Below, piece after piece: positions 34,646-41,835 of a DNA stretch of 64,000 nucleotides. The stretch is taken from assembly GCA_030295235.1 (NCBI GenBank), contig AP026136.1:496001-560000 (forward strand). The letters are read 5' to 3'. How positions within the stretch are numbered: position 1 is the first letter of the stretch; every line of letters starts with the position of its first letter. The position numbers were made by a program, and so were the translations under genes. Below the pieces are notes generated by a model. The model did no database searches and was not told the origin of the DNA. It saw only the letters and a program-made list of their open reading frames with translations. This DNA comes from Fistulifera solaris. Lineage: Eukaryota.

Positions 34646-34823
34646 TGTAGCGCGATCTTTCCCTTAATACTTGGAATGTTCAGATTTGTTTGTTGAGACG
34701 CTACTTCTGTTGTTTGTGTCAGCGTGATGATGGGGCAAAATCACGAACAGCCGAATTCAGAAGATTTTCATTGCGAGTATAGCTATTTGAGTAGGTCACC
34801 ATCGTGAGGATTGTGACGAGAAG

Positions 34824-35201
34824 TCTTAAAATCCACAGGTGCCGGAGCCGTCTATGGATTGGGCTTGACAAAATTAACTTGGTGCAAACGGATTGCTGCA
34901 AACGGATTGCTTGTTAAAATTATAAGCTAGTAAATGAAGTTATCCTATTGATATCAATCTTGTTCTTGTCTTCATTGTTCTCATTTTGATTCATGTAGAA
35001 TATGCAGAAGCTGCTGGCATTGTTCTTTGTCAGTAATAGTTAGGTTCTTTCGGCAGCTGTTAGTTCTTTGAATAACGAGGGTTCGAGTTTTGGTAGATTG
35101 CTGTTCGCTTCTCGTTTTCATTATCATGTAATATGTAGTTGCACTTGTCATTCCGTTTATTGTAGTCACGTGCGGGACTGTGCGGGACTGGTTATTCAAC
35201 A
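34824..35201 (-). repeat. 3' LTR
   Basis: Element strand TGTTGAATAACC...GGATTTTAAGA. By eye it differs from the 5' LTR by one substitution and one indel. Internal duplications TGCAAACGGATTGC x2 and GTGCGGGACT x2. Confidence 0.95.
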
Positions 35202-35211
35202 CTCCCTCTCG
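35202..35211 (-). other. Polypurine tract (plus-strand primer)
   Basis: GAGAGGGAG immediately precedes the TG of the 3' LTR on the element strand. Confidence 0.85.
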
Positions 35212-35221
35212 AACTGCGATC

Positions 35222-38200
35222 TTACCATCCGAGAATTGCTTTCCGATGTTTGACGAAAAGGTCGAGTGTGAGCGGCTTTGTCAAGATATCTGCGGTTTGT
35301 TCGAGAGTATCGATCTTGTGAATTGTTATATCTCCACTATCAACGTATGATCGAAAATGGTGCAGTTTGACATTCAAATGTTTCGTTCTTGGTCGAGCCT
35401 TCGGAACTTTTGCTATTTCCAGAGCTCCCGAGTTGTCTTCGAATACTTTGCAATGAACCTTCGGTCTCCATTCTTTTACGTCAAATCCGAGTGATTGCAT
35501 TTCCTTCAAAGTATTCATGATGGGAATTGCATCTCTAAGTGCATAACTCAATCCAGTAAATTCGCTCTCTGTGGAACTCAATGCAATTTCTGTCTGAAGT
35601 TGGCTTTTGTGATGCAATAATATTCCGGCGTAGGTGATGAAAAAATCCGTGTCGGGAGCGAGCTGTATTGCGGTCCTCAAAAGCTATCTCTGGATCCCAA
35701 TTGCCTGCGAAATCGGCGTCAACATGAACTTCCAAGCTTCTAGAAACGTCCGGGTGCAAAATCATTCCTTTGTCTCTTGTTCCTATCAGGTATTTTGTGA
35801 GCCATCTCATTGCATCTCCATGTTCCTTTCTTGGGTCTGACGCGAAGCGCGCATTGATGGACTGCATAAGCGATGTCTGGCCTGGATCCTCTCGTGAGGT
35901 AGTTCATTTTTCCTATGACTGAAGTGTAATGAAAACTTTTGTCAAATGGCGGTGATTTGGGATGTTTCGAAAGTAGCTTTGATGATGCCATTGGAATTTC
36001 CTTTGTTTTAATTTCCTTCTGGTCGAATTTCATGTCTTTGATTATTGAGTCGATAAGATGCGGTTGCTTCAATTCGATTGTTGATTCGTCAATTCTGTTG
36101 ATGTTGACTCCCAGAAAATCCGATAAATCTCCCTCAACTGTAATGTCTAGCTTGATCTGTTTCATCTTTTCAATAATTTCTTCAATCTCTTTCTCATTTG
36201 GACCTCCAAGAATACTGTCGTCGGTATATAGGACATACATCGTGCCCTTGTAGTAAAATACACACTCGTCGTACTCCGATTGCTTGAAACCAATCTCAAA
36301 TAGCTTCTTTCGCAAATAAAGGAACCATGTTCGACTTGCATCCTTTGCTCCATAAACATTCTTGTGGACTTTCAGTACATAATCATCTGGGGATGCTCCG
36401 TGTATTGTATATCCCTTTGGAATGGACAGATAAATTTCTTTGTCGCGTGGCGCTTGAGGAAATGCCTGAACATAATCAAGTTGTTTTGTATGCCAACCAT
36501 GTATGATCACCATTGCAAGTAACAAGCGGATTGAAGTCCAATTAGCGACTGGAGAGTAGGTCAGTTCATAGTCGCGACCATATTTCATCCGTGACCCATC
36601 AATTGTCAGTCGCGCTTTCCACTTTTTGACTTCACGTGTCATAATGTCTCGTTTGCGACGAAGTTGCCACACCGTTGGAAGAATCGTTGCTCCCTCTGGA
36701 ACTTGACTTCTTGGAAATAATGAGAAATTTCCATTTGCCATTTGATCCTCAATTTCGGTATCCATTCCTTTGGAAAACTCCGGCCAATCGGGTTCTTTGC
36801 GAGCTTGATGCAAATACATTGAGTCAGGATCGGCACTTGTCTTAAAAACATAGAATGGATCTGGTGGATTGAGTTTTGCTGAGGCAGTTTGAAGAGTTTC
36901 GTAGGCAAATAATTCCCCTTTGATGGCGGCCGATGATTGACTGAGTTCATTTACAAACATTGCAACCATGATCTCTATTAATCGAGTAACGGGACGGCGT
37001 TGGCGAGTGCTTCGTCTCTCCCTCTGAGATGGTGGTGGCGGTGGATCGGAAAGGGGCTCAGGTTCAGGTTGATGATCGGTGGATGGAACAGTGTCATCAG
37101 GTTGATCGGTGGGCGGTATCGGCAAAGGAGAGAGGTCGGGAATCGGAGAAGTGGGTGAATCCGACGAGGAAGGCGCTGATTGTTGAAGGGTTGTGCTTGG
37201 AGCGACAAGAAAGCCGGCTTTGAGTTGCCATAAACATGTTTTCGCAAGGTCCGGAACAGTTTGGAATTTCGAATCAAATTTGACGTGAAACTGGGGACTG
37301 ACGAGTCCTGTGTCGGGGTTCAGTACCAGGGCGACAGAACGACTGTGTACTGGAGATCGTCCCAAATAAATTCCGAGATGCGAGCGGAGACGCCATTTGT
37401 GAAATATCCGACTTTTTCCTCCTTGGAGCGCGGCATCGAGCACAAAGACTGGGCAACCGAAAGGTTTCCAATGAATTGGATTCGAATGAATCTCCGTGTT
37501 GGTGAAAAGTTGGTAAGGTGTACGGCGCTCAGCGTGTTTCATGTTTGGCATGTGATTGATGGAATCGTTGGCCATTCGTAAAGCGTAAGGCCACAGGTGG
37601 GTAGTGATGGCTTGCGGCCACTTGTGTTGTGCGTCAATTAACATAGCGCGAGTGAGTTCCTGCAGTTGTCGAATGCGGCGTTCAGCTCGTCCATTTTGAT
37701 GATGGGCTCCCACTCCGGCAAAAGAAAGACCTTGACCATTTGTTGCGCAATCGTTGACCCAGGTGTTTGAATTGAAAATTCCGTTATCAGCATGATAGTG
37801 TTTGATCTTCTCAACTCCACAATTGCGAGCGTATTGTTCAAATGCATGCTTTGCTTCCAGAGTCTCAGTCGCACTTTGTGTCTTTTGCAGATGAACATAA
37901 CTCAAGTTTGAATACAGGTCCACGAAGACTGTTGCGTATAGATAGCGCTTCGTTGTCAGAATTCCTGTAAGCTGAGCAATGAAGCCGGGAGTAGGAGAAT
38001 TCATTTGATCCACAGCAACAACTTGTCCAGGGTGAGTAGGTTTTTGAAGCTCTTTACCCTGTTTGGCTGGTTTCGTTCGCCATTGACGCTTGGTTGCTTT
38101 TCCATAAAGACAGGCAGTACATACAGGTGTCGGGCATTTTGCGAGTCGGCGTGGAAGAACGCCTTGCTTTGCTAATTCTTGAAGCTTTTCCATTGGTGCG

Positions 38201-39303
38201 TGTCCATAGAGTCGATGGTAGGTAAGTAACTCTGCTGCTGGAACTGTTTGAGTTGTTGCAGTGTCACTTTCTTGAACCACGGCTTTGTCTGTGTTGCCGT
38301 CAAACTCGAAGTCGACTGTACGGCTTTGGAACGGTGCTGCTCCCTCTGAATCTGCATTTTCTCCCTCTGAAGCGACTGGGGTGTCCGCGTTGGCATCGAA
38401 ACAAAGCGGATCATCGTCTTCGTCGTCAGTAATTGATGCTTTGGTGCAGAAGGCTTCAAAGTTGCGGAAGCCAGGGGCTGAGTAAAAGGTTGCGACGTTT
38501 GAACGAGGATCAATTGGAATTGTCTTCTTGTTGCTGCCCCAATAAAGAATCGCGTGTTTGCTTGTTGTATCACATCCAGAGAGTTTGTGTCTGGTGTATT
38601 TTGCCCAATGTTGCGGTGATAAAAGTCTGACCTTGCCGTCTGGTACGTAATATGAATTTGGAATCGTGAAGGATGTCATCTTGCCCTCATCATTTTCCCA
38701 TGACCATTTCAGAGTTCCTTTCATCACGTTGCTGGTGCGAGTACCACCAAAGCCCTTGATAATCAAATTTGTTTCTTGTAATTCCCCAACAAAGTCCGTC
38801 AGCGACATGGGAGATGCATGCTGAGCATCTATTGTCGACACCCACTGGAACGGAGTCGGTATCAAAAGTGGTGGTAAGTATTTGTGGGATCGCATTTGCA
38901 CTGAAACACATAGCTGTCATCATCAGCACATATCTCCTTTGACGCACTTTTCGCTGTCTCCACCATCTGGCTATTGGATTGCGGAATCGAATGAGCGCGT
39001 GTGAGAAGTGTATGTTGCCTTTCGTGCTGCTTGTTTCCTTTTGTGAAGGATTGCGTGGGACTTGCAGTTTCGTGTATCCATACTGTGTGAATGCGGACCA
39101 GGTAAGTCTGAATTGGACTGCAAACGCGTTGACCAAATGTTTTCAATCGCTTGCTAATGGGTTTCTTTCGAAGTCTCTTAGGAATATAGCAAGTTGCTGA
39201 CGTCATTAAAATGGTCAAAGAACAAACAGTATATCAGGGATGCGGTGAAGATAAGTAGCCAGTCCCAGCTAAAGCTGAGGTACCGCCAGATGGACTTGGT
39301 TAG
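35222..39303 (-). CDS. pol: Copia pol polyprotein (protease, integrase, reverse transcriptase, RNase H)
   Basis: Protease region FDTDSVPVGVDNRCSACIS. Integrase H-H-C-C (YHRLYGH...CTAC) and D-D-E (VAVDQM, HADNG, AERRIR). RT motifs WKARL, LDYVQAF, YGAKDA, LYTDD. RNase H motifs VDADFAG, ALSSTESE, EDN, ADILTK. Several frameshifts. Confidence 0.95.
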
Positions 39304-40561: not shown

Positions 40562-40653
40562 TTCGTCAGAACGGCGGTAGTTGTTATAAAGCCGGAGCTT
40601 TATGGTCACTTATAAAGTACGGAGCTTTATAGTCACTTTAAGCAGAGGAAGCG

Positions 40654-41032
40654 TCTTAAAATCCACAGGTGCCGGAGCCGTCTATGGATTGGGCTTGACA
40701 AAATTAACTTGGTGCAAACGGATTGCTGCAAACGGATTGCTTGTTAAAATTATAAGCAAGTAAATGAAGTTATCCTATTGATATCAATCTTGTTCTTGTC
40801 TTCATTGTTCTCATTTTGATTCATGTAGAATATGCAGAAGCTGCTGGCATTGTTCTTTGTCAGTAATAGTTAGGTTCTTTCGGCAGCTGTTAGTTCTTTG
40901 AATAACGAGGGTTCGAAGTTTTGGTAGATTGCTGTTCGCTTCTCGTTTTCATTATCATGTAATATGTAGTTGCACTTGTCATTCCGTTTATTGTAGTCAC
41001 GTGCGGGACTGTGCGGGACTGGTTATTCAACA
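40654..41032 (-). repeat. 5' LTR
   Basis: Near-identical copy of 34824-35201. Confidence 0.95.
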
Positions 41033-41835
41033 GAGAAGTTTACATTTTTTGAGTCCCATGCAAGACTCGCGATCGCGAAGCGATCTTCATCAGGCTTGAC
41101 CACCGTCTCGTATCGGTACTCCTCTAAGATTGACATGTAGGAGCCTTTTTCTCCGAAAGCTACTCCTCTCCACATCCAGATCTCAGTCTTGTCTACAGCT
41201 AACCGCAAAAAGATCGCAGGCGAGGGCACATTGTAGACATAACATGGTGGGCGAGAATACCAACGAAAATATTGACTTTTACGTGTTGCCGTAGTTGATG
41301 ATTCTGTAATGATGTAGGCTAGTTTCAATGCTCAACTCAGAGAGAGTATCTTAATTCAGTCCCGAAAAGAGTATCGAATTCCCAGCATCTCTTTTCACGT
41401 TGTTATCAGTAACCTAGATAATCCATGAAAATCTTTCTTTGCTCAACGCACTGTTGCTGACAAGAGTTTAATAGGAGACCAAATAGAGCATTTCGATGAG
41501 TGGCAAGTCCAGCGTGCGTGCGCTGCGATCAACTTCTAACCTTGCTTTTTCGGGAAGGATGACTGGGTGCTTCTAGGGAAAAGCGGAAAAAATAGCAAAG
41601 TTTGTTGAGCTTCATTATTAATTGCACACGATCTCATTTTGGTCTACCTGCATCATTCTGATCCACTTCAAAGCATACTTATAGACGATCGTACACATAT
41701 GACAACATTCGAGACTCGACAATTCTCCATCTTCATCACATGCATCAAAGACCAAGTGGGAGATTGAAAATTTCTTGTTACGACTCACCACACTAGTAGC
41801 GTTTCTCCAGGAAAAGGATCGTAGCGGCTGCCGCA

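Follow-up and report, generated by a model that had tools for sequence, protein, structure and literature searches.

Which RNA starts reverse transcription in an LTR retrotransposon whose 5' LTR is followed by none of the usual tRNA complements? Neumann et al. (2019) list three kinds of primer for LTR elements, the complete tRNA, the half tRNA that arises through a cut in the anticodon stem and the self-primer (PMC6317226; the PMC numbers given here refer to portions of the respective articles). For a copia-like element in a 64,000-nt stretch of DNA from Fistulifera solaris (hereafter the window), the original prediction had placed the primer-binding site (PBS) in 14 nt following the 5' LTR, where it saw neither a TGG of the 3'-CCA type nor a complement of the tRNA anticodon arm, and had proposed as primer a 5' fragment of the initiator tRNA-Met (tRNAi-Met) of about 24 nt, paired in two separate parts. 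The absence of both types of site after the LTR was confirmed in the window. The nature of the block that stands there instead, and the tRNA part it would pair with, are discussed below on the basis of the element itself, of its relatives and of the tRNA genes which carry the complementary stretch.

The window element and the edge of its LTR

With RVT_2, an integrase upstream of the reverse transcriptase (RT), two LTRs, a polypurine tract and a short target-site duplication, the element in the window is a Ty1/copia element (Pseudoviridae) on the minus strand (Table 1). In its pol frame PF07727 is matched at residues 733-971 (E 1.4e-36) and gag_pre-integrase at residues 222-268. The nearest named relatives of the Pol protein are found in Fragilaria, Cylindrotheca and Chaetoceros (46-49% identity), and the closest metagenome protein is 55% identical. 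Comparison with the closest relative, P0001, by tblastn revealed at least two changes of frame, at about 35640-35650 and at 38910-38950, and the occurrence of these changes despite an identity of 99-100% between the members of the direct-repeat pair (34823-35201 and 40653-41032) suggests a young but defective copy or, alternatively, small indels of the assembly. The two LTR copies differ by one inserted base. Tandem repeats also lie within the LTR, namely TTGCTGCAAACGGA in 2.4 copies (40709-40741) and, near the LTR 5' end, GTGCGGGACT in 2.1 copies (41001-41021). No tRNA gene was found in the 64,000 nt of the window.

Table 1. Features of the Ty1/copia element, with positions counted from the first base of the window
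Feature	Position	Strand	Remarks
5' LTR	40654..41032	-	379 nt, starts TGTTG, ends ..TTTTAAGA; placed by the direct repeat and by the 3' LTR ends of relatives
3' LTR	34824..35201	-	direct repeat with the 5' LTR
Putative PBS block, 14 nt	40640..40653	-	adjoins the 5' LTR; complement corresponds to the D arm of initiator-type tRNA-Met
Tandem repeat, about 27 nt, 2.1 copies, 89% matches	40584..40638	-	in the leader, shortly after the PBS
Open frame at the gag position, 243 aa	39683..40414	-	without Pfam match
pol open frame, 1053 aa	35740..38901	-	gag_pre-integrase domain, then RVT_2; integrase precedes RT; polyproteins of diatoms and of metagenomes match at about 50-55% identity
RNase H part of pol (C-terminal), frame shifted	35222..35680	-	tblastn with P0001, frame change near 35644
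Polypurine tract GAGAGGGAG	35202..35210	-	directly upstream of the 3' LTR
Target-site duplication, copy	41033..41038	-	CTTCTC on the element strand; 5 or 6 bp
Target-site duplication, copy	34818..34823	-	CTTCTC; partner of 41033..41038

The end of the LTR was placed at the A at 40654 because of comparison with the 3' LTR ends of relatives, which before foreign DNA read ..AATAATCACA followed by GACG (L030), ..AATAATCACA followed by CCGG (L006) and ..GTATTTTAACA, also written ..TTTTAACA, followed by ATCG (L021). The L021 end nearly matches the sequence that precedes CGCTTCC in L010 and L031, and the LTR start of L021 is preceded by the same polypurine tract GAGAGGGAG as in the window. Read on the element strand, the order at the LTR edge of the window copy is ..TTTTAAGA, CGCTTCCTCTGC, then TTAAAG... 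Both window LTRs end with GA (40654-40655 and 34824-34825) where CA stands in 34/34 related contexts, the last three letters being AGA in the window and ACA in the family. With the boundary at A 40654, the CTTCTC duplication has 6 bp, unless one base matches by chance and the length is the 5 bp usual for copia.

The predicted 14 nt, AGCAGAGGAAGCGT, are indeed present beside the 5' LTR as the single exact occurrence in the window (40641-40654, plus strand), and two matches were found in the window when up to two mismatches were allowed, against 0.44 expected from shuffles. Since the LTR ends at 40654, the last letter of this 14-mer belongs to the LTR.

A block shared by related elements

By means of a Pol protein profile, 59 related loci were fetched from metagenome contigs. 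Upstream of gag, 36 of the 59 carry ACGCTTCC[T/C]CTGCG on the coding strand, and removal of identical contexts and of one false match in a coding region (L026:2093) leaves 34 distinct contexts. Among these, the three letters ACA at the LTR edge are found in 33, 34 and 34 contexts, respectively, and every position of CGCTTCC is the same in 34/34; a T (31) or a C (3) follows, then CTGCG (34/34), and the position after it is C in 31, A in two and G in one. Flanking columns outside the block reach at most 27 of 36 rows for their commonest letter, in a 36-row table that includes the window and the false match. The block of the family thus defined has 14 nt, CGCTTCCTCTGCGC, and begins at the first base after the LTR, which fits the definition of a minus-strand PBS. 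Its position and its conservation can be read directly from the alignment: as it recurs next to the LTR in 34 distinct relatives, the block is, by this comparison, conserved far above chance. Loci bearing the motif occur on all major branches of a quick tree of the integrase region, with Pol proteins that are about 45-55% identical.

The window copy agrees with the family consensus at 40642-40653 (CGCTTCCTCTGC) and has TT at 40640-40641 where the family has GC; the T at 40641, the 13th PBS position, stands where 34/34 related contexts have G. As far as the aligned sites tell, the window element is a slightly mutated member of a large diatom-associated family with a common site. Both the assignment of the block as PBS and the expectation that the post-LTR sequences of relatives should preserve it are therefore borne out by the place which the block occupies next to the LTR in the 34 contexts. 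The leaders that follow it in the relatives are short, the gag ATG often lying about 25-40 nt from the PBS, and the leader tandem repeat of the window copy (Table 1) is absent in the relatives' displayed leaders.

Regarding the 23 loci without the motif, eight stretches from seven of them (L001, L002, L020, L021, L046, L049, L055) were inspected, and the remaining ones were assessed by their open frames alone. L001, L002, L020, L021 and L055 start inside the gag coding sequence, so that the leader is missing; L046 has just 202 nt before its long open frame, with the motif absent, and L051, another related locus without it, is degenerate. The exception is L049, with 396 nt upstream of gag which lack the motif and consist of short repeated units. 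Its near-identical twin on the tree, L023, begins inside an open frame, and its leader therefore lies off the contig. In the long-branch lineage of L049, the leader may be long, or priming may use another site.

Identical (100%) terminal overlaps of 122-127 nt were observed in L006, L008, L011, L013, L018, L025, L036 and L039, and one of 133 nt with 93% identity in L007; long self-repeats occur in L030 and L042, where they are exact, and in L045 (99.8%). In these contigs the assembly has produced circularly permuted elements with a single LTR, and repeats within them therefore cannot show the LTR edges.

Complementarity to the D arm of initiator tRNA-Met

Written on the tRNA-sense strand, the family consensus reads GCGCAGAGGAAGCG(T), which is the unbroken sequence of gene positions 10-23(24) of initiator-type tRNA-Met. 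The cloverleaf given by ARAGORN has the acceptor strand at 1-7, the D stem at 10-13, the D loop at 14-20 and the returning D stem at 21-24, and in this layout the complement of the PBS spans positions 10-23 without interruption (stem 10-13, loop 14-20, stem 21-23). In the matching tRNA-Met genes the D loop has 7 nt, AGAGGAA. The original prediction of a complement in the first quarter of the initiator tRNA-Met was correct, the matching part being D-arm positions 10-23.

The consensus 15-mer was scanned in two collections, viral_contigs and genome_contigs. In viral_contigs, 111 stretches hold the 15-mer, and in 41 of the 111 its complement lies in sense inside a tRNA gene (40 tRNA-Met(CAT), one tRNA-Pro), genes which, being found by way of the motif, hold it by construction, many of them in giant-virus bins or on unassigned contigs and none tied to a diatom. 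As the search was directed by the motif, the information lies in which genes carry the stretch and where in the gene it is situated. A T loop of the GATCGAAAC type, which we take to be a hallmark of eukaryotic initiator tRNAs, is present in 33 of the 41. All 15-mer matches preceded by AC in viral_contigs (30/30) are tRNA genes, so that no copy of the copia PBS was found among them. In genome_contigs, one of the matches listed (at least 120) falls in a tRNA gene, L202.

This L202 is a 543-nt contig in a Bacteroidetes MAG, with two tandem initiator tRNA-Met genes of eukaryotic type, and probably represents eukaryotic contamination of a bacterial bin. Contigs of giant-virus bins (L061-L170 and L291-L331; for example, L079, L087, L093, L296, L306) carry many tRNA-Met genes of the eukaryotic initiator type, often within tRNA clusters and with a purine at the variable D-loop site. 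No tRNA-Met was found in the 59 related loci, the sole tRNA predicted in them being a tRNA-Ala that lies within the pol match of L038, and no RVT_2 match was obtained in the genome behind L202 or in the one tRNA-bearing viral record that was searched.

Folding with tRNA positions 1-23 (from L148) in RNAduplexfold gave 12 unbroken pairs for the window PBS and 14 for the PBS of L003, the structures showing a few scattered extra pairs farther out. The window copy has lost the two distal pairs and retains 12 contiguous ones, or 13 if the terminal A of the LTR is counted opposite U24; its own 15-mer lies in none of the tRNA genes (0 among 107 matches).

The sole variable base within the PBS core (T/C) faces the sole variable base of the D loop (A/G). 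The C variant is found in L006, L018 and L030, and the C-variant 16-mer, taken from L018, gave 41 matches, of which 20 lie in tRNA-Met(CAT) genes that have a G in the D loop. Among the matches listed in an N-pattern scan (at least 120 stretches) were 44 distinct tRNA genes, 44/44 of them tRNA-Met(CAT), with A (20), G (14), T (6) or C (4) at the D-loop site. As judged by base pairing, the PBS variants correspond to the two purines that occur at a tRNAi position subject to natural variation. The three C-variant elements fall within one subclade of six rows in the quick tree, so that a single origin is possible and covariation with the host cannot be called.

Alternative readings of the block

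In our judgement, the block is probably the minus-strand PBS of diatom Ty1/copia elements, a contiguous complement of tRNAi-Met positions 10-23 that would be primed by a 5' fragment of about 23 nt.

It is unlikely that the block instead binds the D arm of tRNAi-Met for packaging or positioning, with priming taking place elsewhere, at a hairpin or by self-priming. Contacts of this kind have been reported for Ty1, where the RNA, beyond its 10-nt PBS, touches tRNAi-Met in the T and D regions (PMC3592414), and fungal GalEa copia elements without a tRNA-type PBS have a conserved hairpin there instead (PMC5445492); a mere packaging role is nevertheless at odds with a block that starts at the very first post-LTR base in every element, is not palindromic, and is followed downstream by no other conserved block and by no conserved TGG-type PBS, either in the window or in the family consensus. 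With regard to self-priming, the longest LTR complement to the PBS has 6 nt, a length reached or exceeded in about 40% of 1000 shuffles and hence at chance level. By these comparisons, both the 3' end of another tRNA and the LTR itself, which had been named as possible better partners of the block, fit poorly.

Quite improbable, too, is a primer in the form of another host RNA ending ..GCGCAGAGGAAGCG-3', or of a non-initiator tRNA with the same D arm. While the one tRNA-Pro among the 41 tRNA genes with the stretch would agree with such a primer, the remaining 40/41 are tRNA-Met(CAT), the initiator-type T loop is found in 33/41, the 44 distinct genes among the listed N-pattern matches are tRNA-Met(CAT) throughout, and copia elements usually use tRNAi-Met (ICTV profile, PMC8515867).

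The two-part pairing first proposed, which loops out nt 8-16 of a tRNAi 5' fragment of about 24 nt and pairs its nt 1-7 and about nt 19-25, can draw on the composition of the window 14-mer (AGCAGAG plus GAAGCGT) and on the existence of tRNA-Met genes starting with AGCAGAG (L098, L202), but is hardly tenable, since the acceptor half is specific to the window copy (G, not T, in 34/34 related contexts), the D arm pairs contiguously at 14/14 positions with the consensus and at 12-13 with the window copy, no loop being needed, and the window's variant 15-mer occurs in no tRNA gene among its 107 matches. The acceptor-stem half depends on the single base at 40641, which, on the tRNA-sense strand, is a C to A change that turns CGCAGAG into AGCAGAG. 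In tRNAi genes with A at the D-loop site, GCAGAG stands both at positions 2-7 and at positions 12-17 (e.g. L098), and it is because of this repetition in acceptor stem and D arm, together with the one substitution in the window, that an acceptor match appeared. The contiguous match had remained hidden as the tRNAi underlying the prediction was of the human type, with a C in the D loop (..GCAGCGG..). What survives of the original prediction is the 5' tRNAi fragment as likely primer, of about 23-24 nt by complementarity; the looping out of nt 8-16 has to be abandoned in favour of one contiguous D-arm stretch.

A proposed mechanism of priming from the D arm

The complementarity of the block to D-arm positions 10-23 is itself an observation, and it is from this complementarity that we infer which host tRNA is used, its cleavage and the priming. 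In the proposed course of events, the D arm of tRNAi-Met would be unfolded and annealed to the PBS, and the tRNA, unless it arrives already cut, would be cleaved behind position 23, which is G24 in the usual numbering. Minus-strand strong-stop DNA would then be primed by the 3' OH so created at position 23. The primer would consequently be a 'quarter tRNA' of about 23 nt from the tRNA 5' end, as compared to the half tRNA of 39-40 nt that serves copia and Ty5. The cut could be made by a host nuclease which produces 5' tRNA fragments or by the RNase H of the element acting on the RNA duplex; the RNase H of Tf1 reportedly acts on an RNA duplex to free the primer of that element.

Two modified bases that are frequent in eukaryotic tRNAs, m1G9 and m2,2G26, prevent Watson-Crick pairing. 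They would bracket the paired stretch exactly, and m1G9 would halt plus-strand synthesis along the primer and so account for the end of conservation at position 10. Fragments of 22-24 nt from the 5' end of tRNAs occur in many eukaryotes. In 30 of the 41 matching tRNA genes, the stretch continues as ..GCGTGT, the complement of the terminal ACA of the LTR, and the initial duplex could therefore comprise 17 bp, with the cut made inside it; this match may also be coincidence, because ACA is the usual terminus of Ty1-like LTRs (PMC4139406). We lean, if only by a little, towards the broader view that a widespread diatom copia clade primes from a 23-nt 5' tRNAi fragment cut in the D arm and would thus constitute a further primer class, in which the modified bases of the tRNA would set the length of the 14-nt PBS and the size of the primer would be that of the 22-24-nt 5' tRNA fragments.

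Comparison with known systems

Elements of the hemivirus type (Drosophila copia, 1731, Ty5, Osser) likewise belong to Ty1/copia and use the initiator Met tRNA, in which DNA synthesis sets out from the anticodon stem-loop, with the 3' OH provided by nucleotide 39-40 (PMC1181622, PMC6317226), or by nucleotide 40 according to PMC1181622. There, as here, an internal part of the tRNA, and not the CCA end, pairs with a PBS adjoining the LTR, and a 5' tRNA fragment must therefore supply the 3' OH. The two differ in the part concerned, which is the anticodon stem in the hemivirus type and positions 10-23 in the diatom family, where the 3' OH would be shifted by about 16 nt towards the 5' end; in setting this mode apart from that of copia and Ty5, the original prediction was right. 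The PBS of the Pseudovirus type, as in Ty1 and in metazoan GalEa (TGGTAGCAGAGC; PMC5445492, PMC3587641), shares the primer tRNA species, but has as its complement the 3' acceptor end with its CCA and therefore starts with TGG, whereas the site of the diatom family corresponds to the D arm and has no TGG. The CoDi-like elements of diatoms have been grouped with the Ty and GalEa clades in Copia 'branch 1' (PMC5445492).

A further likeness exists to the auxiliary contacts of Ty1, where element RNA close to the PBS also pairs with the D region of tRNAi-Met. In Ty1, however, the auxiliary boxes accompany a normal 3'-end PBS, whereas in the diatom family the D-arm complement is the sole conserved block and occupies the priming position; the Box 2.1 contact of Ty1 was not confirmed inside particles (PMC3592414). 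Auxiliary D contacts of this kind are a possible evolutionary source of a D-arm PBS in a related clade. The hairpin site of fungal GalEa and the self-priming of Tf1 are likewise non-canonical solutions at the PBS position. The former is a 9-bp palindrome which includes the last A of the LTR and has no tRNA match (PMC5445492), whereas ACGCTTCCT.. is not palindromic; in Tf1, the PBS is complementary to the start of its own transcript, while the diatom block has only the 6-nt, chance-level complement in the LTR.

Significance for diatom elements

No description of a D-arm PBS was found in the literature covered (main texts of openly accessible articles). The available portions of PMC5445492, PMC2806351, PMC3587641, PMC8515867, PMC4139406, PMC6317226, PMC1181622, PMC3592414, PMC5776459 and PMC7466962 mention neither a D-arm PBS nor the PBS of CoDi elements; a term search in the main text of Maumus et al. 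(2009), who described the CoDi elements, found neither tRNA nor a primer-binding site mentioned there, and in the literature listing the motif string appeared in unrelated PCR-primer contexts only.

The genera of Pseudoviridae are separated by the ICTV through the length of the primer (PMC8515867), and a family-wide D-arm PBS, if true, would add a fourth kind to the three listed primers of LTR elements. Pipelines that require the PBS to match a tRNA 3' end, for example the LTRdigest filter used in the Cyclotella cryptica genome paper (PMC7466962), could miss the diatom D-arm family, and the conserved 17-mer ACACGCTTCCTCTGCGC offers a marker of the 5' LTR edge in metagenome contigs. The D-arm PBS predicts a 23-nt 5' fragment of tRNAi joined to strong-stop DNA and, if priming indeed proceeds in this manner, would link the making of 5' tRNA fragments to the replication or control of retrotransposons in phytoplankton.
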